64,000 nucleotides of DNA from Patescibacteria group bacterium (lineage in GTDB: Bacteria; Patescibacteriota; Patescibacteriia; 2-12-FULL-60-25). The translations under genes and the position numbers were made by a program. Positions 4,854-57,020 of the stretch are shown one piece after another. Each line of letters starts with the position of its first letter. Position 1 is the first letter of the stretch. The stretch spans positions 62,558 to 126,557 of the forward strand of contig JBAZWV010000001.1 of the NCBI GenBank assembly GCA_041660225.1, given 5' to 3'. Under the pieces are notes generated by a model. That model searched no databases. It worked only from the letters and a program-made list of their open reading frames with translations, and had not been told where the DNA came from.

Positions 4854-5393
4854 ATGCGACTCTTCATCGGGATTCGAATACCCAATGATATCCAGGCGTC
4901 TCTTCAGCGGAACTGGGAACAAAGCGACCATCCCTCCGAAGATATGCGGGTTCTGGAGCCGGAAAGCCGCCACCTCACACTCGCCTTCCTCGGTGAAGTG
5001 AGTCCGGACAACCGACTGGCGCTTGAGATTTTGATCTCTAAAGCCATGGAACGACCTCCAAAAGGGTCGTTTTCATTTGTGACGTTTGAAACGTTTCCTC
5101 CAAAAGCACCGATTATTATCACCGCAAAACTGGATATCTCCGATGCACCTTCGTGGCCGGATTTTGTCGACCGGTTGCGCGATATGGTTTCGGTTGCTGC
5201 TCCAAGCGTTGACCGCAAGCCGTGGATGGCGCACGTTACCGTTGCACGTAGCCGCAAAGCCATCCTCCCCGCGTGGAACGAATCGTTCGATCCGATCCCG
5301 TGGAAACCGGAGAATGTTTCTCTTATCCTCAGCGAACCAGGCAGTAATGGTTCAAGATACACAGATCTTCATGTCTTCCCCCTCGACGTTTGA
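4854..5393 (+). CDS. thpR: RNA 2',3'-cyclic phosphodiesterase / 2'-5' RNA ligase family (2H phosphoesterase)
   Basis: It carries two H-x-T/S-x motifs (HLTLAFLG and HVTVAR) with the spacing typical of LigT/ThpR. Confidence 0.8.
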   Translation: MRLFIGIRIPNDIQASLQRNWEQSDHPSEDMRVLEPESRHLTLAFLGEVSPDNRLALEILISKAMERPPKGSFSFVTFETFPPKAPIIITAKLDISDAPSWPDFVDRLRDMVSVAAPSVDRKPWMAHVTVARSRKAILPAWNESFDPIPWKPENVSLILSEPGSNGSRYTDLHVFPLDV

Positions 5394-6135
5394 GTGCTTC
5401 GGACTCGTTATCCACGGATTAGACTGGGAACGCGTCCGAGAGAAAATTGACTACGCCGTTTCACGCCGTGAACAACTTTGGATTGTCACGACAAATCCGG
5501 AAATTCTGCTTGAAGCAAAACGGAATCCATCATACTGGCAAACCGTCCGGCAAGCCGATCTGCGACTCGTGGACGGTTTTGGATTGAAACTCGTTGGTCG
5601 ATTGTTCGGTGCGAGGTTGGAACGGCTGACAGGCGTTGAACTCTCGGAACAGTTGTTGCAGATCGCGGAAGAACGGAACTGGAAGGTCGCGTTTATTGGC
5701 GGAGGGAAGGACAGTGGTGATAAAGCCGCGTGGGAAATTCGAAAGCGTTTCACGCGACTGCGGATCGTGACGGAACGAGCAGGCACGATCGGAAATGATG
5801 GAGCTGGAGACGTGGCAACGGACGAAGCGTTGCAACGGCTAACGCTCGAAGCGCCGGATGTCATGCTTGTTGCGTTTGGTCATCCGAAACAAGAGGCATG
5901 GATTGCGCGTCATCTCGCTGAGCTTCCAAGTGTGAAGGTTGCCGTCGGTGTTGGCGGAACCTTTGACTATTGGTCCGGCGGAGCCTCGCGAGCACCAATG
6001 TGGATGCGCTCGATCGGTCTCGAATGGCTGTGGCGTGTCGCGCATGAACCGAAACGGTGGAAACGCATCTGGAACGCCGTCGTGGTTTTTCCTCTTACCG
6101 CGATCTTTAGCCGATTGGATCATAAGACTGCGTAA
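5371..6135 (+). CDS. WecB/TagA/CpsF family glycosyltransferase
   Basis: Family blocks IVTTNPEILLEA, ADLRLVDGFGL, FGHPKQEAW, GVGGTFDYWSG and EWLWR are present. The start is ambiguous: ATG 5371 or ATG 5347. The track start at 5086 is an extension overlapping thpR. Confidence 0.8.
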   Translation: MSSPSTFECFGLVIHGLDWERVREKIDYAVSRREQLWIVTTNPEILLEAKRNPSYWQTVRQADLRLVDGFGLKLVGRLFGARLERLTGVELSEQLLQIAEERNWKVAFIGGGKDSGDKAAWEIRKRFTRLRIVTERAGTIGNDGAGDVATDEALQRLTLEAPDVMLVAFGHPKQEAWIARHLAELPSVKVAVGVGGTFDYWSGGASRAPMWMRSIGLEWLWRVAHEPKRWKRIWNAVVVFPLTAIFSRLDHKTA

Positions 6136-6137
6136 GC

Positions 6138-7649
6138 ATGGACAATCCCTTCCAAAAAACCTACCCTACGGAGGCTATGGAACGAGTCCGCGTACGGTTT
6201 GCCCCCAGTCCCACGGGTTTTTTGCATATTGGCGGTTTGCGGAGTGCGCTCTACAACGAGTTATTCGCGCGTCATCATCAAGGTGATTTCATTTTACGCA
6301 TCGAAGACACGGATCGGACGAGATTCGTAGAAGGTGCGGTTGAAAATCTCTGTCGCTCGCTTGAAGCGTGTGGCGTGATTCCGAATGAAGGCGTGTGGTT
6401 GGATAAAAAAGGAAATGTGATGCAGCGCGGTGATCACGGACCGTACATCCAATCGGAACGTCAGGAAAAACATCGTGCGTATGCCGACGAGTTAGTGAAG
6501 ATCGGAAAAGCCTATCATTGTTTCTGCACGCAAAAACGACTTGAGACGCTTCGCGAAGAACAGCAGGCGTCAGGGAAGCCAACGATGTATGACGGGCACT
6601 GTCGGGCCGTGCCGCATGAAGAAGCAGAAGGACGGATCAAGAATGGTGAGGGATACGTCATTCGTTTGAAATTGCCAAAACAAGGGAGCGTGACGGTGTG
6701 GGATTTGATTCGCGACGACATCTCGTTTGAGTGGGCGCTCATCGACGATCAGGTCATTATCAAATCCGACGGTTTTCCGACGTATCACTTGGCGGCGACC
6801 TGCGATGACCATGACATGGAGATCTCACACGTCATCCGCGGAGAAGAATGGCTGCCATCCGCACCAAAGCATCTTTTTATCTACGAAGCATTCGGCTGGA
6901 AGCCACCCAAGTTTGCGCATCTCCCGCTCCTGTTGAATAGCGATCGTTCCAAGCTCTCGAAACGACAAGGCGACGTTGCCGTCGAAGATTATTTGAAGAA
7001 AGGATATCTTCCGGAAGCGCTTCTCAACTTCGTTGCGCTTCTTGGTTGGAATCCGAGTGGAGAAAAGGAAGTGTACACGCATGAAGAATTGACGGCGCAA
7101 TTCGATATCACAAAAGTAAACAAAGCAGGAGCCGTCCTGAATGTGGAAAAACTTGATTGGTTGAACGCGCAATATCTTCGGACGATGCCGACGGAAAAAT
7201 ATCTCACACTGATGCATCCGTTCGTCGCGGAGAAAACGGATGACGGATCGTTTGCGGATCGTTGTCTTCTTCTGATCCGCGATCGCCTCACGAAGCCGCA
7301 AGACGTGGACGAACTGACAACATTTTTCTTCCGTGATCATTTGGATTATTCAAAAGCGCCGCTGACATGGAAGACGCAATCGAGAGAAGAAGCGAAGGAA
7401 CGTCTTGAGGCGTTGCGTGAGATCATCAGCTCGATGAACGAAGGCACTACGTTGAACGCGATGGAAATTGAAACAGCTATCAAGAATCGTATTGCAGAAA
7501 AAGGGTGGGGGAATGGGGATACGCTGTGGCCAATGCGAGTGGCGTTGTCGGGACAAGAAAAATCACCCGGACCCTTTGAGCTTGCGGCTACGTACGGCAA
7601 AAAACGGGCTCTAGAACGTCTTGAGGACGCGATCAGCTCCCTTTCCTGA
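6138..7649 (+). CDS. gltX: glutamate--tRNA ligase
   Basis: It has RFAPSPTGFLHIGGLRSALYN (HIGH-type motif), the KLSKRQG (KMSKS) motif and IEDTD. Confidence 0.95.
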   Translation: MDNPFQKTYPTEAMERVRVRFAPSPTGFLHIGGLRSALYNELFARHHQGDFILRIEDTDRTRFVEGAVENLCRSLEACGVIPNEGVWLDKKGNVMQRGDHGPYIQSERQEKHRAYADELVKIGKAYHCFCTQKRLETLREEQQASGKPTMYDGHCRAVPHEEAEGRIKNGEGYVIRLKLPKQGSVTVWDLIRDDISFEWALIDDQVIIKSDGFPTYHLAATCDDHDMEISHVIRGEEWLPSAPKHLFIYEAFGWKPPKFAHLPLLLNSDRSKLSKRQGDVAVEDYLKKGYLPEALLNFVALLGWNPSGEKEVYTHEELTAQFDITKVNKAGAVLNVEKLDWLNAQYLRTMPTEKYLTLMHPFVAEKTDDGSFADRCLLLIRDRLTKPQDVDELTTFFFRDHLDYSKAPLTWKTQSREEAKERLEALREIISSMNEGTTLNAMEIETAIKNRIAEKGWGNGDTLWPMRVALSGQEKSPGPFELAATYGKKRALERLEDAISSLS

Positions 7650-7664
7650 TATACTCAGAATCGC

Positions 7665-8906
7665 ATGCGTCTACGGAGGATTCTCGCGATAGTACTCCTC
7701 AGCCCACTTACGTTTGGGGCTGTTTTTCCGGTTGTCGCTCAAGTAGCACACGAGGATGACGGGGATGTCGCCATCAAAGAAACCGTTGATGATCTGAACG
7801 AGGCCGTAAAGGATAAGCGTGGTCGTATTAAAGAACTTGATACGTTGATCGGCGGATATCGCAGTCGGATCAAGGAGCAGGAAGCGTCACAGCTCACGCT
7901 TGAAAACGAAGTTGCACTGCTCGACAATCGCATTCGAGAAAAAGAACTCGACATCCAGCGCGCCAAAACGGAAATTGAAACTCTCAATCTTGAAATTGAG
8001 CAGCTTGGACAGGAGATTGCCATCCAAGAAGATCGTATCGCGAAACATAAAGATCTGATCGCTGAATTCGTACGTCGTACGCACCAGTCGGATGAAGTTT
8101 CGACGATGGACGTACTCCTCACACGGCCATCACTCTCTTCATTTTTTAATCGGATCGATGAAATGGAACGGCTTCAAAAAGAGCTGGGCGTGTCGATTGA
8201 AAAATTGAAAGGCGTAAAAGACAGCCTTGATAATGCCAAGCGGCTCCGAGATCAGCATCGCGCCGATGTGACGGAACAGGAAAACAAACTTCGAGACGAA
8301 CAAATGGAATTGGAACTCCAACGCAACACAAAAACATCTCTTGTCAGTGAAACGGCGCAAAGTCAGGAGGAGTTTCAGCGTATTCTGTACGAGTTGAAAC
8401 AACAGCAACAAATCACGTCTGGCGATATTTCACGACTTGAGGAGGAATTGAAAGATACGCTTGATAGCGTTGATGAATCGCTCGCGCGTGGCGATATTCT
8501 GCTCAATTGGCCGCTCAATCCGGCAAAAGGTATTAGCGCGAGTTTTCATGACCCAAGCTATCCGTTCCGACGCCTCTTCGAACACCCGGGAACAGATATT
8601 CCAGCTCCTGTCGGCACGGCTGTGAAGGCGGCGGCTGGCGGATATGTCGCTTGGAATAAGACAGGGAAGCAGTATGGCAACTACACGATGATCGTTCATC
8701 CAGGAGGAATTGCAACCATTTACGCGCACCTCTCGAAATTTGTCGCGAAGGCGGATACATACGTTGATCGCGGTGACGTGATCGGTCTTTCCGGCGGACG
8801 ACCGGGAGATCAGGGAGCGGGGCTCTCAACCGGACCACACCTTCACTTCGAAGTGCGACAAAACGGAATTCCGGTAAACGCAGAAAACTTTTTGCCTGGG
8901 CTGTAA
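7665..8906 (+). CDS. M23 family metallopeptidase with long N-terminal coiled coil (EnvC-like)
   Basis: A signal/TM N-terminus is followed by about 250 aa of heptad-rich E/K/L sequence. The C-terminal M23 motifs are HPGTDI...YAHLS...GPHLHFEVRQNG. Confidence 0.85.
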   Translation: MRLRRILAIVLLSPLTFGAVFPVVAQVAHEDDGDVAIKETVDDLNEAVKDKRGRIKELDTLIGGYRSRIKEQEASQLTLENEVALLDNRIREKELDIQRAKTEIETLNLEIEQLGQEIAIQEDRIAKHKDLIAEFVRRTHQSDEVSTMDVLLTRPSLSSFFNRIDEMERLQKELGVSIEKLKGVKDSLDNAKRLRDQHRADVTEQENKLRDEQMELELQRNTKTSLVSETAQSQEEFQRILYELKQQQQITSGDISRLEEELKDTLDSVDESLARGDILLNWPLNPAKGISASFHDPSYPFRRLFEHPGTDIPAPVGTAVKAAAGGYVAWNKTGKQYGNYTMIVHPGGIATIYAHLSKFVAKADTYVDRGDVIGLSGGRPGDQGAGLSTGPHLHFEVRQNGIPVNAENFLPGL

Positions 8907-15484: not shown

Positions 15485-15559
15485 TCGAGGGTAGCTCAGC
15501 GGTAGAGCAGGGGACTGTTAATCCCTTGGTCGTGGGTTCGATCCCCACCCCTCGAGCCA
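15485..15559 (+). tRNA. tRNA-Asn (anticodon GTT), CCA encoded
   Basis: I folded the cloverleaf by hand. Acceptor is 15485-15491 with 15549-15555. The D arm is gctc/gagc. The anticodon stem is 15510-15514 with 15522-15526, loop ctGTTaa. The T arm is gtggg-ttcgatc-cccac, followed by gCCA. Confidence 0.9.
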
Positions 15560-27311: not shown

Positions 27312-28064
27312 ATGAACAATAACCGAATGATCGCGATCGTTGTGATCGTCCTCGCCCTTTTTGGCATTGGAGGTTTGTACGCGTTCAATCAATCGTCGAA
27401 AACGGAGAACGCGAATACGCCGACCAATCAGGCACCGAATCCGACACCGAGTACTCCGAATCCAACAACGACTCCGCCGGTCACACCGCCCGCGACAACG
27501 CCGACATCGACAGAAGGAGGAGATATCACGACACCGACATCGACGGTTTCGATCTGGGAAAAATATACTCGTGCCACGGAGTACTTTCTCAAATATCCTC
27601 CGTATCTCGTGCTTCAGACCGGAAGCGATTTGGCAGGTGGGTTCTTCGACATTGGATCGACCCAGGTAAAACTTCGGTTCCCGCAAGATTACTTTAAGAA
27701 AGACAATTCAAACTTCGTCGAGTCATATCTTGTTGTTAGCCGCAACACGATAGATACGGACCGGCTTGCGAGCTCGCAGTGCACTTCTTTCTCCGACATC
27801 GATAACAAAATGAACGATAAAGCCGCAAAAAAAGTTATCAACGGCGTGAGCTGGTACATGCAACATGTGGAAGAACCGGCTGCTGGGAATCGTTACTACA
27901 GTGACATCTACCGGACGGTTCGAGACAATTATTGCTATGAAGTCGCGATCACTGTTCATACGGGCGTGAAGGAAAACTACGAGCCGATGGTGCATGAGTT
28001 CAATAAAACCAAAGCAATCAATGTGCTTGAGAAGGTTTTGGGAACGTTCACGTTCTTTAAGTAA
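27312..28064 (+). CDS. hypothetical secreted/membrane-anchored protein with Thr/Pro-rich linker
   Basis: A TM anchor (MIAIVVIVLALFGIGG) is followed by the linker NPTPSTPNPTTTPPVTPPATTPTST and a globular domain with no family I recognise. Confidence 0.55.
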   Translation: MNNNRMIAIVVIVLALFGIGGLYAFNQSSKTENANTPTNQAPNPTPSTPNPTTTPPVTPPATTPTSTEGGDITTPTSTVSIWEKYTRATEYFLKYPPYLVLQTGSDLAGGFFDIGSTQVKLRFPQDYFKKDNSNFVESYLVVSRNTIDTDRLASSQCTSFSDIDNKMNDKAAKKVINGVSWYMQHVEEPAAGNRYYSDIYRTVRDNYCYEVAITVHTGVKENYEPMVHEFNKTKAINVLEKVLGTFTFFK

Positions 28065-28563
28065 TCTCGACGATTCCGTACATCACGTCGCCGCGATCTG
28101 TTGAGATCGTAACGGCATCACCGACCTTGTGGTGGAGAAGTGCGGAGCCGAGAGGCGAAACATGAGAGATCCGGCCTTTGGTCGGATCTGTTTCGTGCGG
28201 ACCGACGATGCGATAGGTTTTCTGTTTTCCCTCGATACTCACGACAACCGTTGAACCCAGGCGAACATTCTCGGACGCTCCTTCTTCGATGAGGATGACG
28301 CGCTTCAATCGTTCTTTGATTCCAAAAATGCGTCCGTCGGTTCGCGCAAGCCGCGCCTTGGATTCCGTATACTCCGCGTTCTCGGAGAGATCGCCCATCG
28401 CGATCGCGCGCGTCAGGTCCGCGACGGTGTTCGGACGTTCCGCTTCAAGCTGCGCGAGTGTCCGTTTCAGATTCTCAACACCACGCGGCGTCAAATACAC
28501 TGCTCCCGTATCGTCTTGGGCTTGTTGGCGAAGCATTTGCGACCGGCGCTTGGGGAGTTGCAT
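28057..28563 (-). CDS. greA: transcription elongation factor GreA
   Basis: Blocks GDLSENAEYTESKARL, RIFGIKERLKRV and the C-terminal SHVSPLGSALLHHKVGD match GreA. The chosen start is ATG at 28563. Confidence 0.9.
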   Translation of the reverse strand: MQLPKRRSQMLRQQAQDDTGAVYLTPRGVENLKRTLAQLEAERPNTVADLTRAIAMGDLSENAEYTESKARLARTDGRIFGIKERLKRVILIEEGASENVRLGSTVVVSIEGKQKTYRIVGPHETDPTKGRISHVSPLGSALLHHKVGDAVTISTDRGDVMYGIVEIT

Positions 28564-28622
28564 GTCCGCATGGTAGCGGAGTCTAGAAGTAGGGGCAATC
28601 AACGTTTTGGGATCAAAAAAAT

Positions 28623-28650
28623 ATTTTATCCACACGTTTTATCTTGACAA
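28623..28650 (-). promoter_or_regulatory. possible sigma-70 promoter of greA
   Basis: On the minus strand, TTGTCA (28650-28645), a 16-nt spacer and TAAAAT (28628-28623) lie about 55 nt upstream of the greA ATG. Confidence 0.4.
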
Positions 28651-29008
28651 AACCAAAAAAATATGGAAAGCTGATCATGCAACGGAGCAAAGAGGCTAAA
28701 CCTCTAAGCGCCGACAAACGTTTCGTAAAAGCAACCTGACAGACCATCGGGCTCACGACCAAGGAGGGGTCACCTCCAAGGAAGACTGAAACGAAACAAA
28801 CCAGACCTGGAAGAAGCCGAAGCCGGTGCACAGGCGCGAAGGCGTCCAAAACCGTTCGCGAGCTGAAAACAGGAAAGAAATCATCGATCTTTGTCGAAAG
28901 ATGAAGAAATGCGTAACCGCGATGAGACTGTGATCCTTTTCAATGAGGCGCAGTGCAGGTAAACTGAAAGATGGTGGACGTGGCCACGTCCACCATCAAA
29001 CCAACTTG
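28651..29008 (+). ncRNA. candidate structured leader / ncRNA associated with the downstream reverse transcriptase (function unknown)
   Basis: This is the longest non-coding tract in the window. It has no credible ORF, is purine-rich on the + strand and keeps a host-like GC next to an AT-rich RT gene. Local hairpins lie at 28691-28705, 28763-28777, 28835-28860 and 28887-28902, and a 28-bp palindrome lies at 28969-28996. Strand and ends are not determined. Confidence 0.35.
28969..28996. repeat. perfect 28-bp palindrome (gatggtggacgtgg|ccacgtccaccatc)
   Basis: I read it directly. The 14-nt arms are exact reverse complements. It ends 12 nt before ATG 29009. Confidence 0.95.
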
Positions 29009-30184
29009 ATGTTTAAGATTACAGAAGAGCTACTTCTCAAAGCATGGCTTGAAATCTATCGGAGTAAACCAAAGGCAAAAAGAAAATATTCTAGGGGAAT
29101 TGATGAAGTGTCCATAGAGGATTTCAAGAAGCATGATCGAGAAAATCTCGGTGAAATATATCGCCAATTAGAGGGCGGTTTTTTTGAATTTAGACAATTA
29201 AAAGAATATAAAATTCCCCGTCCAGGAAAAAGTCCACGTTTAATTCAGGCACCGACAGTTACAGATCGGATTGTCCAAAAAGTTATCTCTAATCATTTAA
29301 TGGATGTTTTTCAAAAAATATTTACAACTGCGGGAATTGTAGGCTCAGTTCGGGGCACCACGGTTGAAGGCGTTCTTAGAGGGGCGGTGGGCTACTACGA
29401 TCAAGGTTATCATTACGTTCTCAAAACTGATATTGAGAATTATTTTCCCAGTATTAATAAAAAGAGATTAAAAAAAATCTTCTATAGAGAAATTCATGAC
29501 GAAAAATTAAGAACATATTTTGATCAATTTCTCAAACAATCAAAACAACCAGGCATACCACAAGGGACTCCACTGTCTCCCTTCTTTGCGAATCTTTTTT
29601 TGCTTAATTTTGATAAAGCTCTTAAAAAAGAAAAGAATATAAAACATTTTAGATACATAGATGATTTAGTAGTTTTTTGCGACAATAGAGATAGAGCAGA
29701 AGCTATTTTCAATAAAGTTGAACCTATGTTTAGAGATCTAGGGCTAACTATTCACCCTTTAAGTACACCTGGAAAGACTTTTATCGATCTATTTGATACA
29801 GGAAGAGTAGATGTGCTTGGTGTTATATATAAAAATAAAAAACTTTTAATTAAACAAAAAAAATATCGAGAATTCATCGCTGAAACTATTACCCCCATTC
29901 AATTTAAAAGCTGTTTGAACTCTCGATTGAGTACTGAACAGGGTTTAAACGATCTATTAAAAGACTTGCGCTATCGAGTCTATGGGTGGGCGGGCGCCTA
30001 CAGTTTTTGTGATGTAAAAGAAACTTTTGAGGATCTGGATGCAAAACTCTATGAGCAATTCAATAAACTACTCAATCGTCTTGCTCTCACTCCCACGGAA
30101 AAATCTTACTATTTAAGCCATCTTCCTAAATTCACAAGAGCTTTAAAAAAACGATCTTTAAAGAAGTCTCAACTATTGTCATAA
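29009..30184 (+). CDS. free-standing group II-intron-like reverse transcriptase (G2L-type; YIDD active site)
   Basis: RT0 is LLKAWLEIYRSKPKAKRKYSRGIDEVSIEDF, RT1 RLIQAPTVTDRIVQKVI, RT3 YVLKTDIENYFPSI and RT4 GIPQGTPLSPFFANLFL. RT5 is FRYIDDLVVF (YIDD at 29654-29665), RT7 is VDVLGVIY and the thumb-like block is YRVYGWAGAYSF. An in-frame upstream ATG at 28943 is an alternative start. The ORF is markedly AT-rich. Confidence 0.9.
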   Translation: MFKITEELLLKAWLEIYRSKPKAKRKYSRGIDEVSIEDFKKHDRENLGEIYRQLEGGFFEFRQLKEYKIPRPGKSPRLIQAPTVTDRIVQKVISNHLMDVFQKIFTTAGIVGSVRGTTVEGVLRGAVGYYDQGYHYVLKTDIENYFPSINKKRLKKIFYREIHDEKLRTYFDQFLKQSKQPGIPQGTPLSPFFANLFLLNFDKALKKEKNIKHFRYIDDLVVFCDNRDRAEAIFNKVEPMFRDLGLTIHPLSTPGKTFIDLFDTGRVDVLGVIYKNKKLLIKQKKYREFIAETITPIQFKSCLNSRLSTEQGLNDLLKDLRYRVYGWAGAYSFCDVKETFEDLDAKLYEQFNKLLNRLALTPTEKSYYLSHLPKFTRALKKRSLKKSQLLS

Positions 30185-30213
30185 AATCATTTTCCCGCTA
30201 ACCTTAGCCAACT

Positions 30214-31128
30214 ATGGCCGCAATCGAAATCAAGAATCTCTCAAAAACCTACGCAACAGGTACAAAAGCCCTCACAAACGTCGATCTGACGGTGAAAGAA
30301 GGGGACTTTTTTGCGCTTCTTGGCGCGAACGGGGCGGGAAAAACCACCGTTATCGCGATTTTGACGAGCCTCGTCACAAAAACGTCGGGAACCGTCACCG
30401 TGAACGGGTTTGATCTCGACAAGAATCCGGATGCGGTCAAAGCGCAGATCGGCGTTGTTCCGCAGGAATTTAACTTCAACATCTTCGAAAAGGTGGTCGA
30501 TATCGTTCTTGATCAGGCGGGTTTTTACGGCGTTGAGCGGCCGGCTGCATTACTGCGAGCCGAAGAGCTCATGAAAGCGCTCGGACTCTGGGAAAAGAAA
30601 GACATGAAGTCCATGACACTTTCAGGCGGCATGAAACGCCGTCTCATGATCGTCCGCGCGCTCATGCATCAGCCAAAAATTCTGTTGCTTGATGAGCCGA
30701 CGGCGGGTGTCGATGTCGAGCTACGTCACGGCATGTGGGAGTATCTCAAAAAACTCAATGCCGAAGGCACGACAATTTTGCTGACAACGCATTATTTGGA
30801 AGAAGTGGAACAGCTTTGCAAGAACGTCGTCATTCTGAAAAAAGGGGAGAAGGCACACGACTCTTCTGTCGCATCGTTGCTTTCGGGACTTCCGTCCTCG
30901 ACGTACCGCGTAACACTCGACAAGGATCCGAAAACGCTCGACATCAAGGGGATGAAAATTTCTCCGCGTGATGAACGAACGGCGGATATCGAACTTGACT
31001 CCAATCAAAGTCTCACGAGCCTCATGCAGACGCTTTCGGATGCAGGCGTAAACGTTCTCGACATTCGTCCGGCGGCGAACCGAATTGAACAGGCATTTCT
31101 TGATATTACCAACGGACAACCCGTATGA
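30214..31128 (+). CDS. ABC transporter ATP-binding protein (ABC-2 exporter type)
   Basis: It has Walker A GANGAGKTT, signature LSGGMKRRL and Walker B ILLLDEPTAGVD. Confidence 0.92.
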   Translation: MAAIEIKNLSKTYATGTKALTNVDLTVKEGDFFALLGANGAGKTTVIAILTSLVTKTSGTVTVNGFDLDKNPDAVKAQIGVVPQEFNFNIFEKVVDIVLDQAGFYGVERPAALLRAEELMKALGLWEKKDMKSMTLSGGMKRRLMIVRALMHQPKILLLDEPTAGVDVELRHGMWEYLKKLNAEGTTILLTTHYLEEVEQLCKNVVILKKGEKAHDSSVASLLSGLPSSTYRVTLDKDPKTLDIKGMKISPRDERTADIELDSNQSLTSLMQTLSDAGVNVLDIRPAANRIEQAFLDITNGQPV

Positions 31129-56916: not shown

Positions 56917-57020
56917 AGTATGGATAGATAAATGGGTTTTCCGACGATAGCAAGTCCGTTTTTAGATGGGAATGCGCTCCGTGTGGATAAGCTTCGTAGC
57001 GGATGCTAATCTACCCACCT

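Follow-up and report, generated by a model that had tools for sequence, protein, structure and literature searches.

The locus described here lies within a window of 64,000 nucleotides, the whole stretch of DNA that was analysed, and comprises a reverse transcriptase (RT) gene and, directly 5' of it, a gene-free tract of 445 nt (28564-29008). The tract was taken as gene-free because the coding region of greA, on the minus strand, ends at 28563 as judged by Pfam. The neighbours of the module in the window, GreA (greA) and an ABC transporter ATPase, are of a housekeeping rather than a defence character. The features assigned to the locus are as follows.

28626..28634, plus strand: exact DnaA-box consensus TTATCCACA, 9 nt upstream of the −35 element of promoter P1
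28644..28672, plus strand: predicted promoter P1 of the RNA, with a perfect −35 (TTGACA, 28644-28649), a 17-nt spacer and a weak −10 (AAAGCT, 28667-28672)
28680..28997, plus strand: predicted structured ncRNA of about 318 nt, from the 5' motif through hairpin P5, with a predicted 3' end
28680..28719, plus strand: 5' motif, stem P1 (28683-28687 with 28709-28713) around hairpin P1a
28692-28695 with 28701-28704, plus strand: hairpin P1a, loop CUAAA
28720..28880, plus strand: variable middle domain with a conserved GGCUCAC..ACC, hairpin P2b and lineage-specific hairpins, the least certain part of the RNA
28763-28767 with 28773-28777, plus strand: hairpin P2b, placed by hand alignment
28881..28925, plus strand: helix P3 (28881-28886 with 28920-28925); a small hairpin and an A-rich strand (…AAUGCGUAACCG) lie within it
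28927..28954, plus strand: hairpin P4, ACUGUG (28927-28932) with CGCAGU (28949-28954)
28937..28965, plus strand: internal promoter-like element P2, TTTTCA (28937-28942), 17 nt, TAAACT (28960-28965), an 8/12 match
28970..28997, plus strand: hairpin P5, a perfect 28-nt palindrome with a 12-bp G+C-rich stem and a 4-nt loop
29009-30184, plus strand: RT ORF, 391 aa, free-standing, group II intron-like and intact

The motifs listed for the ORF 29009-30184 in a preliminary description of this DNA (GIDEVSIEDF, PTVTDRIVQKVI, PQGTPLSPFFANLFL, RYIDDLVVF, VDVLGVIY and GWAGAYSF) were all found in the RT translation. The alternative ATG proposed there at 28943 was rejected; ATG 29009 was taken as the start because the N-termini of 15 homologues align to it with the pattern 'MF.I...L.KAW', while the added 22 aa show no conservation among them. 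Pfam returned an RVT_1 match (4e-24) and a sub-threshold GIIM match. No endonuclease domain was found by Pfam, in line with the earlier claim, and a DNA-binding domain is also absent. The G+C content is 0.34 in the RT gene and 0.52 in the flanks, which puts figures on an AT-richness previously judged by eye; the leader, at 0.51 G+C with 60% purine and 34% A on the RT strand, has the higher G+C and the purine bias that had been described.

D141, D218 and D219, the catalytic residues, do not vary across RT relatives of 39-60% identity. The active-site motif is YIDD in the window, and the family has I or V at this position, so that YIDD and YVDD alternate. The RT4 motif reads PQG in 13 of 16 family members, RT3a falls about 9 aa short of its length in the GsI-IIC and E. 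rectale group II RTs, and one position of the C-terminal tail holds Ser or Thr in 13/16 members without being invariant. The AF2 model of the RT has a pLDDT of 91.4 and its nearest folds are the GsI-IIC RT and G2L4 (TM 0.70 each); on this model, the RT fold is of the group II RT type.

The top NCBIfam model for the window RT was TIGR04416, matched over model positions 4-351 of 353 at 170.8 bits against a cut-off of 300, and the relatives P0059 and P0060 reached 151-162 bits, also below that cut-off. The best matches by sequence and fold were the GsI-IIC RT, the E. rectale group II RT and G2L4. Membership of the group II intron RTs or maturases was rejected on the sub-cut-off TIGR04416 score and the lack of a surrounding ribozyme with domains I-VI; the RT has the generic traits of a G2L protein, being closest to group II intron RTs with the intron RNA absent. 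The clade is small and discrete: among 1.84e9 representatives, about eight clusters scored 250-586 bits, followed by a gap to 204 bits or less. Its members come mostly, indeed almost only, from Patescibacteria (CPR). No close relative pointing to a phage origin was found in IMG/VR, where the best RT had 32% identity. One homologue carries the name 'retron-type reverse transcriptase' from JGI. The best reading is that the clade branched from group II intron RTs, with group II intron and G2L4 RTs as its nearest relatives.

Assignment to UG38, DRT2 or G2L4 was rejected. UG38 is an RT group reported from CPR; the match to RT_UG38 was partial at 75.5 bits, lower than the scores of group II RTs with that model (97-115 bits). 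The Drt2 model NF041746 gave 72.6 bits, far short of its cut-off of 390, and the DRT2 chain in the PDB gave 46 bits. A link to G2L4, a double-strand-break repair RT, had been drawn in the preliminary description from the YIDD motif. G2L4 is not known to have a dedicated ncRNA. Like the G2L4 RT of Pseudomonas aeruginosa, the window RT is free-standing and group II-derived, lacks an intron RNA, is similar in size and fold and has YIDD. The hallmarks of G2L4 are AQG in RT4 and an RT3a plug with a 9-aa insertion (PMC12337344), whereas in this family RT4 is mostly PQG, RT3a is shortened instead of extended, and YIDD is not conserved; the G2L4 identity was rejected, and the repair link is not supported.

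The tract upstream of the RT is the longest non-coding tract of the window, as had been stated; a crude tiling of ORFs puts the two runners-up among internal gaps at 335 and 283 nt, with a median gap of 38.5 nt. Compared with dinucleotide shuffles, the minimum free energy of the window leader had z = −5.3 in the sense and −2.1 in the antisense direction, and the means over 16 loci were −4.0 and −2.5, respectively. The leader gave no Rfam match in a permissive scan of 28000-30600, in a gathering-threshold scan of the whole window or in 16 related loci. Group II RNA domains (D1-D4, D5-D6) were likewise not found around the RT in the permissive scan, and only 29 nt separate the RT stop (30184) from the next ATG (30214), in agreement with the earlier statement that there is no room for a ribozyme. 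Rfam detected no group II RNA in the 16 family loci, whereas L004, a distant control RT locus that lies inside a group II intron, was positive at 101 bits. Thus, neither of two outcomes that the preliminary description had set against its own proposal, a leader belonging to a housekeeping RNA family and homologues residing in group II introns, was observed.

Coding capacity of the leader was also considered. Stop-free frames showed no excess on either strand across 16 loci, in a test that a 40-codon unit would escape, and the antisense 78-aa ORF at 28613-28849 is expected from base composition (p = 0.26); this test gave no sign of a hidden neo-type ORF or small protein. No template-like repeat was detected in the leader.

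In each of the 17 family loci (distinct loci with sufficient upstream sequence, RT identity 39-60%), the RT is preceded by 250-360 nt of leader that lies on its strand and contains no gene. When MAFFT was given entire leaders, or only the 3' hairpins, the covarying arms fell out of register, and the alignments used were short anchored segments, hand-defined arms and covariance-model alignments. For the 5' motif (alignment A4), 96.3% of the cells are paired and double changes occur in six of nine pairs; the covariation score is 0.512 compared to 0.227 in shuffles, with 0 of 500 shuffles reaching 0.512. The covariance model R1 scored 46.6 bits at the 5' motif of the window and had no other match in 709 kb outside the family loci; in the held-out locus L171 it scored 36.2 bits (E = 1.4e-8). 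Scores of at least 33 bits were obtained in 13 of the 17 loci and a weak one of 13 bits in L090, while the divergent forms in L079, L085 and L031 were recognised by eye only. Further downstream, the hand-aligned arms of P2b in seven subgroup-A loci are fully complementary yet varied (GGAGG/CCUCC, GGAAUU/AAUUCC, GUCGG/CCGAC and others).

For the 3' domain (alignment A8), the covariation score is 0.583, whereas shuffles gave 0.185 and slid partners no more than 0.11. This alignment was made with model R2, which was trained only on the window and L001 and recovered P3 and the 3' domain, ending at the RT start, in L088, L171, L078 and L087; 96.9% of its cells are paired and 17 of 24 pairs show double changes. 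P3 has double changes in 5/6 pairs, and its arms are complementary in 15/15 hand-aligned loci. Every cell of P4 is paired in A8, compensatory variants occur in L078 (CUCUG/CAGAG) and L079 (CCUUG/CAAGG), and the end of the P4 3' arm lies 52-59 nt from the RT start in all subgroup-A loci. P5 corresponds to the perfect palindrome that had been reported just before the start codon, and is now placed at 28970-28997. A hairpin occupies this position in every subgroup-A locus with a different sequence each time (double changes in 11/12 pairs, 97.9% of cells paired). It ends 11 nt before the start codon in the window and 7-16 nt before it across subgroup A. In L003 this hairpin carries a U-tract and resembles an intrinsic terminator; in the other loci, no terminator was found between the RNA and the RT start. 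The G-U pairs of the helices are compatible with the RT strand only. Judged from these comparisons, the leader is a conserved structured RNA rather than a spacer, its helices being kept by compensatory changes, and it is under selection.

Upstream of the RNA, promoter P1 would place the transcription start at about 28679-28680. In 11 of 16 loci, TTGAC occurs 33-51 nt ahead of the 5' motif, and sigma-70 consensus matches of at least 9/12 occur at the place of P1 in most loci. The P1 spacing is identical in the window and L001, and the −10 is weak in both. From these sequence matches, the RNA appears to be independently expressed from its own predicted promoter. The second element, P2, is better matched (9-11 of 12) in L001, L087, L088, L078, L079 and L002, where it occupies the corresponding position and 41-50 nt separate the end of the −10 from the RT start; in subgroup B, the sequence TTGACA-17/18-TAAAAT is found 134-152 nt ahead of the RT start. 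In both subgroups the distance of the element to the RT start is fixed. P2 may be the RT's own promoter. Exact copies of the DnaA box number two in the 64-kb window against 0.24 expected. In 11/16 loci, a box with no more than one mismatch is found 44-69 nt ahead of the RNA 5' motif (background, 0.04 per 125 nt), and L171 also has one, giving 12/17 loci in all with a box next to the −35 element. Its orientation is plus in subgroup A and minus in subgroup B. DnaA may bind there.

The surroundings of the homologues differ from those in the window. Restriction-modification genes, an OLD-like nuclease, a KAP NTPase, an SLFN-type helicase with MazG, Vsr, DpnI and DpnII were found as neighbours, as were mobility-type genes (a tyrosine integrase with tRNA-Asn, a serine recombinase and an IS element). 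At some family loci, tRNA or tmRNA genes lie within 1 kb upstream. The module is often found in restriction/defence or integration islands; the family, with about 20 known sequences, is too small for a statistical test of defence-island enrichment. The G+C content of the RT is 5-18 points under that of the flanks in 15/16 loci, the exception being L078 with a difference of 1 point, and the module looks horizontally acquired. No conserved partner or effector protein was found, the downstream genes being different at each locus.

The RNA and the RT were always found together across the family loci. Because the RT always stands behind a conserved folded ncRNA, the pair looks like a new RNA-plus-enzyme module, of a type that bacteria employ in antiviral defence. 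This supports the central proposal of the preliminary description, which took the leader for a dedicated RNA accompanying a free-standing, horizontally acquired RT: the leader is conserved at 17/17 loci and covaries. The accompanying view that such a partner was undescribed for group II-like RTs is out of date, as UG17, formerly G2L3 (PMC8632793), is now DRT10, composed of ncRNA, SLATT and RT (PMC12632851). The RTs of DRT2, DRT9 and DRT10 use as templates ncRNAs that are encoded upstream in cis (PMC11100668, PMC12483538, PMC12632851). By analogy with these systems, the reading preferred here, tentatively and at somewhat less than an even chance, is a two-part module of ncRNA and RT, retroelement in origin, similar to DRT2 and DRT10 and probably acting in defence, with the RNA as a putative template.

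In such a module, a structured ncRNA of about 300 nt would be transcribed from its own promoter flanked by the DnaA box, and the RT would bind it, likely at the 3' domain P3-P4-P5 abutting the start codon (compare domain IVa). Part of the RNA may then serve as scaffold and template for cDNA synthesis, as in DRT2, DRT9 and DRT10, and the cDNA product or its accumulation would act against phage or other invading DNA. Through the DnaA box, the RNA could be transcribed in step with the cell's replication state.

Of the described systems, DRT2 resembles the module in having a structured upstream ncRNA of similar size (about 280 nt in DRT2), an RT of about 400 aa without an extra domain, and two components with no partner protein, RNA and RT possibly being co-transcribed; both are frequent in defence islands (PMC11100668, PMC9226505). 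The two differ in that the RT here is of another lineage, the RNA is unrelated, no neo-type stop-free frame was detected, and the promoter-like element within the leader reads in the sense direction instead of lying antisense across a repeat junction. The points against the module reading in the window are the housekeeping neighbours, the weak −10 of P1 and the weak internal promoter. Also counted against it are the negative searches for a template-like repeat and a hidden open frame in the leader, and the fact that the nearest RTs, G2L4 and group II, act without such a dedicated ncRNA template.

As the RNA abuts the start codon without a terminator in most loci, it may be only a 5' leader. 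The alternative built on this has the leader as a cis-regulatory 5' UTR that controls RT translation, through autogenous binding or occlusion by P5, and RT transcription through DnaA, with the RT acting elsewhere, for example in DNA repair as G2L4 does. It is considered unlikely, though it deserves serious weight. An RNA that extends to the start codon, with P5 ending 7-16 nt before it in subgroup A and a terminator only in L003, is what this alternative would predict; the closest solved folds, GsI-IIC RT and G2L4, are compatible with it, and the DnaA box would fit a gene responsive to replication stress or DNA damage. However, at least six conserved helices over 250-360 nt are far beyond the needs of known translational operators. 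Furthermore, the internal promoter-like element would yield an RT mRNA without most or all of the conserved 5' domain, in which case cis control cannot account for the conservation of that domain. The missing G2L4 hallmarks speak against G2L4-like repair, and the patchy, AT-rich, island-borne distribution is unlike that of a housekeeping repair gene.

A more speculative proposal, and a doubtful one, is that the clade is a surviving intermediate between group II intron RNPs and the ncRNA-templated class-2 defence RTs (DRT10/UG17). The RNA partner would be descended from the intron or have replaced the intron RNA, a defined segment of it would be copied into cDNA, and the system would be DnaA-switched, so that it would sense replication state or its disturbance by phage. 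With the mobile group II intron RNP, the module shares fingers, palm and thumb of group II type and a hairpin just before the start codon, where domain IVa, the high-affinity site of the maturase, lies; it differs in having no ribozyme domains, no DNA-binding or endonuclease domain, all of its RNA upstream of the ORF, and a single-copy element.

A divergent DRT10/UG17 system, making tandem-repeat cDNA on the ncRNA in a telomerase-like manner without the SLATT effector, is very unlikely. The PADLOC model RT_UG17 matched the RTs over nearly their full length at 150-166 bits, UG17 being itself group II-like (PMC8632793), but this match is not specific because true group II intron RTs outscore the family on the same model (164-188 bits). 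Other likenesses to DRT10 are the group II-like RT ancestry, HMM cross-matches and a structured, upstream, independently expressed ncRNA (PMC12632851; bioRxiv 10.64898/2026.04.29.721553). DRT10 produces protein-primed tandem-repeat cDNA, and the Ser/Thr of the C-terminal tail (13/16) recalls its priming Ser/Tyr (PMC12632851), although the residue is not invariant here. Against this, no SLATT or other membrane protein was a conserved neighbour among the called neighbours at 13 homologue loci and the window; the RNA, about 300 nt and directly before the RT, is over twice as long as the subtype-specific DRT10 ncRNA of about 137 nt with its template loop (PMC12632851); and the hosts are CPR, compared with Pseudomonadota, Bacteroidota and Bacillota for DRT10.

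Highly improbable, too, is a retron-like arrangement in which the leader is an msr/msd and the RT makes branched msDNA primed from an RNA 2'-OH. The layout, with the ncRNA immediately upstream of the RT, the carriage on defence islands and the JGI name of one homologue recall retrons, but the RT falls outside the retron clade: the retron St85 model gave 88.9 bits against a cut-off of 235, and retron RTs rank well under group II RTs as matches by sequence and fold. Conserved terminal pairing of the RNA ends through a1/a2 inverted repeats was not seen in single-sequence folds, and there is no conserved effector gene. A decaying group II intron remnant, made up of an ORF plus a 5' fragment and lacking a function of its own, is scarcely credible despite the full-length likeness to group II RTs (TIGR04416 positions 4-351 of 353) and the domain IVa-like hairpin adjoining the start codon, given an intact ORF with catalytic residues invariant across 39-60% identity, RNA helices maintained by compensatory changes, no D1-D4 or D5-D6 Rfam matches where the control intron was detected, and only 29 nt beyond the stop codon. 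No likeness of the leader to intron domains I-III was seen either.

In full-text searches of the literature on group II-like RTs, Patescibacteria/CPR, RT plus ncRNA, and defence, no description of this RNA-RT pair was found, and the RT lineage and the RNA fit no described family. RTs with a dedicated ncRNA include retrons, DRT2, DRT3, DRT9 and DRT10, and have revealed several unexpected modes of making DNA. To our knowledge, each newly characterised RT-RNA pair has so far had a different mechanism. The pair described here is placed between group II intron RTs and UG17/DRT10, a lineage recently tied to the origin of telomerase. As a compact RT of 391 aa with a confident structural model, the enzyme may also be of use as a tool. 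If the DnaA box at the RNA promoter is a true link, it would be an unusual tie of chromosome replication control to a retroelement, in CPR hosts whose defence and RNA biology are almost unknown.

The region of the window around the reverse transcriptase (RT) is arranged as follows.

Up to 28563, minus strand: greA coding region (Pfam GreA_GreB and GreA_GreB_N).
28564-29008: gene-free tract of 445 nt (the leader) between greA and the RT ORF.
28626-28634: exact match to the DnaA-box consensus, TTATCCACA.
28937-28965: promoter-like element P2 (8/12 matches).
29009-30184, plus strand: RT ORF, 391 aa.
From 29 nt past the RT stop codon: ABC-transporter ATPase gene (Pfam).

Pfam matched the RT ORF to RVT_1 (4e-24) and, below threshold, to the maturase domain GIIM; it found no endonuclease domain, as the preliminary description had stated, and the RT motifs quoted there were all found in the translation. 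The RT starts at the ATG at 29009, where 15 homologues begin at the same aligned position. The alternative ATG suggested at 28943 was discarded, as its 22 extra residues are not conserved among homologues. G+C was 0.34 in the RT, 0.51 in the leader and 0.52 in the rest of the window, so the gene judged AT-rich by eye is indeed so, and the leader described as purine-rich is 60% purine on the RT strand. By a crude ORF tiling of the window, the leader was also the largest internal gap, as claimed (runners-up 335 and 283 nt; median 38.5 nt), and the perfect 28-nt palindrome reported before the RT start was located at 28970-28997. No Shine-Dalgarno-like sequence was found at 28998-29008 ahead of the RT, at 30185-30213 ahead of the ABC ATPase gene or before the greA start; near the RT start, GGAGG-like runs were present only in the 5' arm of helix P5, ~30 nt ahead of it. 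The sole RNA gene recognised by Rfam in the window at gathering thresholds was a tRNA at 15485-15556.

The RT belongs to a small, discrete clade. An exhaustive HMMER search over 1.84 billion representative proteins returned ~8 clusters at 250-586 bits, and the next proteins (≤204 bits) were divergent group II-like RTs. A word-indexed search gave ~19 members at 39-60% identity, followed by a fall to ≤31%. A protein identical to the window RT came from a Patescibacteria MAG; other members were from Patescibacteria and Candidatus Nomurabacteria MAGs, with one from a MAG labelled Gammaproteobacteria. No close relative was found among IMG/VR viral contigs. In one family protein (P0014; 506 aa, on a contig of 3292 nt), the match to the family profile covers residues 270-498 and begins only at profile position 155. 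The N-terminal half is thus different, and a fusion, a frameshift or an artefact of gene calling may be responsible.

A same-strand structured RNA always goes with RTs of this clade. Upstream sequence was gathered for 17 distinct family loci, and in each of them a leader of 250-360 nt on the RT strand is free of genes. The 5' motif of the RNA comprises an outer stem (consensus CGGGG/CCCCG) around the hairpin GAGG-CUAAA-CCUC. In an alignment of 12 sequences, 96.3% of cells pair, with changes on both sides in 6/9 pairs, and covariation was 0.512 versus 0.227 when shuffled (0/500 shuffles reached 0.512; slid partners ≤0.21). A covariance model of this motif (R1), searched against 709 kb, found it only upstream of family RTs (runner-up 18 bits), scoring at least 33 bits in 13/17 loci. 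One locus fetched later and outside the R1 training, L171, reached 36.2 bits (E = 1.4e-8). L090 was weak (13 bits), and the divergent forms in L079, L085 and L031 were recognised by eye only.

For the 3' domain, a covariance model of three helices, P3, P4 and P5 (R2), was built from the window and L001 alone. Full-length matches ending exactly at the RT start were found in L088, L171, L078 and L087 (19-23 bits; E = 0.02-0.12 in 344 kb), and nothing was found in unrelated RT loci. In the R2-derived alignment, which is fitted to the model itself and of which two rows hold P5, a palindrome, as read from the opposite strand, 96.9% of cells pair, double changes occur in 17/24 pairs and covariation was 0.583 versus 0.185 shuffled (0/500; slid partners ≤0.11). 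Hand-defined arms carried P3 and P4 into subgroup B, the more distant of two sets of loci (the window belongs with subgroup A), where every pair is canonical and the spacing to the RT start is fixed; likewise, the mid-domain hairpin P2b has differing complementary arms, defined by hand, in 7 loci. The helices are thus under selection, and the conservation on which the preliminary description had staked its proposal is borne out, the tract being present in 17/17 loci with covariation in both the 5' motif and the 3' helices.

On the sense strand, folding energies were well below those of dinucleotide shuffles (z averaging -4.0, and -5.3 for the window); the antisense strand was less extreme (mean z = -2.5), and G-U pairs in the helices were compatible with the RT strand only. 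No leader had an excess of stop-free frames; a 78-aa antisense ORF in the window leader was rejected as a gene, being explained by composition. The leader lay 9-20 G+C points above the RT gene in 16/16 loci. The earlier remark that it 'keeps' a higher GC therefore holds for the value, while the trait is a property of the RNA and not of the host.

The RNA carries its own promoter-like signals, labelled separately from the helices. The first, predicted promoter P1, has TTGAC(A/T) 33-51 nt before the 5' motif in 11/16 loci scanned; in the window its -35 is perfect and its -10 weak, and L001 is alike at equal spacing. Just upstream of TTGAC(A/T), the DnaA-box consensus was present with at most one mismatch in 11/16 loci, and additionally in L171, against a background of 0.04 per 125 nt in family loci. 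Seven copies are exact, and the box is in + orientation in subgroup A and in - orientation in subgroup B. Across the 64-kb window, exact copies numbered 2 versus 0.24 expected (the second at 56982-56990, minus strand) and boxes with at most one mismatch 17 versus 8.4 expected (reached by 0/100 shuffles); they formed no origin-like cluster. A minus-strand promoter-like site at 28623-28650 (TTGTCA-16-TAAAAT, 10/12 matches) overlaps the DnaA box and the -35 of the RNA promoter and points to greA, which starts at 28563; the 5' edge of the module may therefore also supply or share the greA promoter.

The second, sigma-70-like element, P2, is internal to the leader, and its distance to the RT start is fixed. 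Six subgroup A loci match at 9-11/12 positions; there the -35 occupies the loop of P4, and the -10 falls in the P4-P5 interval and ends 41-50 nt short of the ATG. The subgroup B version, close to consensus (TTGACA-17/18-TAAAAT; TTTACA-17-TAAGAT in L031), lies between the 5' domain and P3 and ends 134-152 nt before the RT start. The simplest reading of these predicted elements is that the RT would have its own promoter and the upstream RNA would be a separate, overlapping transcript. In L003, a distant family member, the last hairpin ahead of the RT (5925-5953) has a U-tract after it, as in a classic intrinsic terminator. This suggests a possible 3' end for the upstream RNA at that point, in which case the RT needs read-through or its own promoter.

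No conserved neighbour protein was found across homologue loci, and the RT neighbours in the window are housekeeping genes. Defence or mobility genes surround many homologue loci. These were a DNA methylase with HNH; MmeI-type restriction-modification with an OLD-like ATPase; DpnII with a KAP NTPase; a methylase, R.HinP1I and Vsr, with DpnI nearby; an SLFN-type helicase with a MazG-like gene and a kinase; and a ResIII helicase. In addition, L002 has a tyrosine integrase with tRNA-Asn, L003 a serine recombinase and L086 an IS element. In four loci a tRNA or tmRNA gene precedes the module by no more than 1 kb, the distance being 55-950 nt:

L002, 5251-5322: tRNA-Asn; tyrosine integrase at 7219-8247, just downstream of the module.
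L171, 197-270: another tRNA.
L088, 1-57: truncated tRNA.
L086, 2464-2867: tmRNA.

This adjacency, together with the L002 integrase, is the pattern of integrated genomic islands. The RT gene was 5-18 G+C points under its flanks in 15/16 loci (L078 differed by only 1 point). Outside the leader, sub-threshold matches to the Rfam LOOT RNA (~36 bits; gathering 46.4) were seen at L090 90-199 and L031 2935-3045.

We tentatively favour a reading in which the RNA is the functional partner of the RT, would be bound by it and is probably copied in part to cDNA, by analogy with DRT2, DRT9 and DRT10, the module probably being defence cargo; as a whole, this chain falls a little short of an even chance. In the main rival, which is doubtful but deserves weight, the leader is an elaborate cis-regulatory RNA and the RT works on other substrates. 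Against this rival, the RNA is large, and the internal promoter would give an RT mRNA without the conserved 5' domain.

The remaining alternatives concern the identity of the RT, which sequence and fold place beside group II intron RTs. The NCBIfam group II RT/maturase model aligned end to end, yet at 170.8 bits versus a cut-off of 300. An AlphaFold model from the family alignment was confident (pLDDT 91.4), and its closest solved folds were GsI-IIC RT and G2L4 (TM 0.70), then DRT9 (0.66). The family loci lack an intron and a conserved partner protein, and their leaders match no known RNA family, the Rfam scan of window and family leaders being negative. As a positive control, a distant relative inside a true group II intron (L004; 25% identity, Stellaceae MAG) gave a 101-bit match upstream of its RT (group-II-D1D4-4, 5111-5247); the lack of intron RNA at family loci is therefore real, and a decayed intron is unlikely. 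A retron is likewise unlikely: the family profile scored highest on GsI-IIC RT (126 bits), E. rectale group II RT (118) and G2L4 (118), and much lower on DRT9 (65), retron RTs (~47) and DRT2 (46). The PADLOC RT_UG17 model matched the window RT at 153 bits, which seemed important because UG17 is now DRT10, a defence system of ncRNA, SLATT and RT (PMC12632851; bioRxiv 10.64898/2026.04.29.721553). However, three true group II intron RTs reached 164-188 bits, so the match is unspecific and was rejected as an identification, in agreement with the original naming of UG17 as G2L3, a group II-like RT (PMC8632793). No SLATT gene was present near the RT in the window or homologue loci, and a DRT10 lacking SLATT is improbable.

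G2L4 identity was ruled out by the active site, RT4 and RT3a. YIDD, previously taken as a G2L4 hallmark, alternates with YVDD in this family, RT4 is mostly PQG, and RT3a falls ~9 residues short of its length in group II RTs, at a place where G2L4 instead carries a 9-residue insertion (PMC12337344). A Ser/Thr occupies A1 alignment column 434 in 13/16 members (window ~residue 375, …LPKFTRALKK…, in a poorly modelled C-terminal tail). In DRT10, a Ser or Tyr at the C-terminus serves as primer for cDNA synthesis (PMC12632851); since the position is not invariant, this likeness is a lead only.

Domesticated RTs with an ncRNA encoded in cis are already well known as a kind and now much studied. Full-text searches on this theme gave no account of this RT clade, of its RNA, or of an RT-associated ncRNA with a DnaA box. 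The family is worth testing: its RT lies between group II introns and UG17/DRT10, its hosts are CPR bacteria, a DnaA box at the RNA promoter is unexpected, and every RT-ncRNA pair characterised to date has had its own mechanism.
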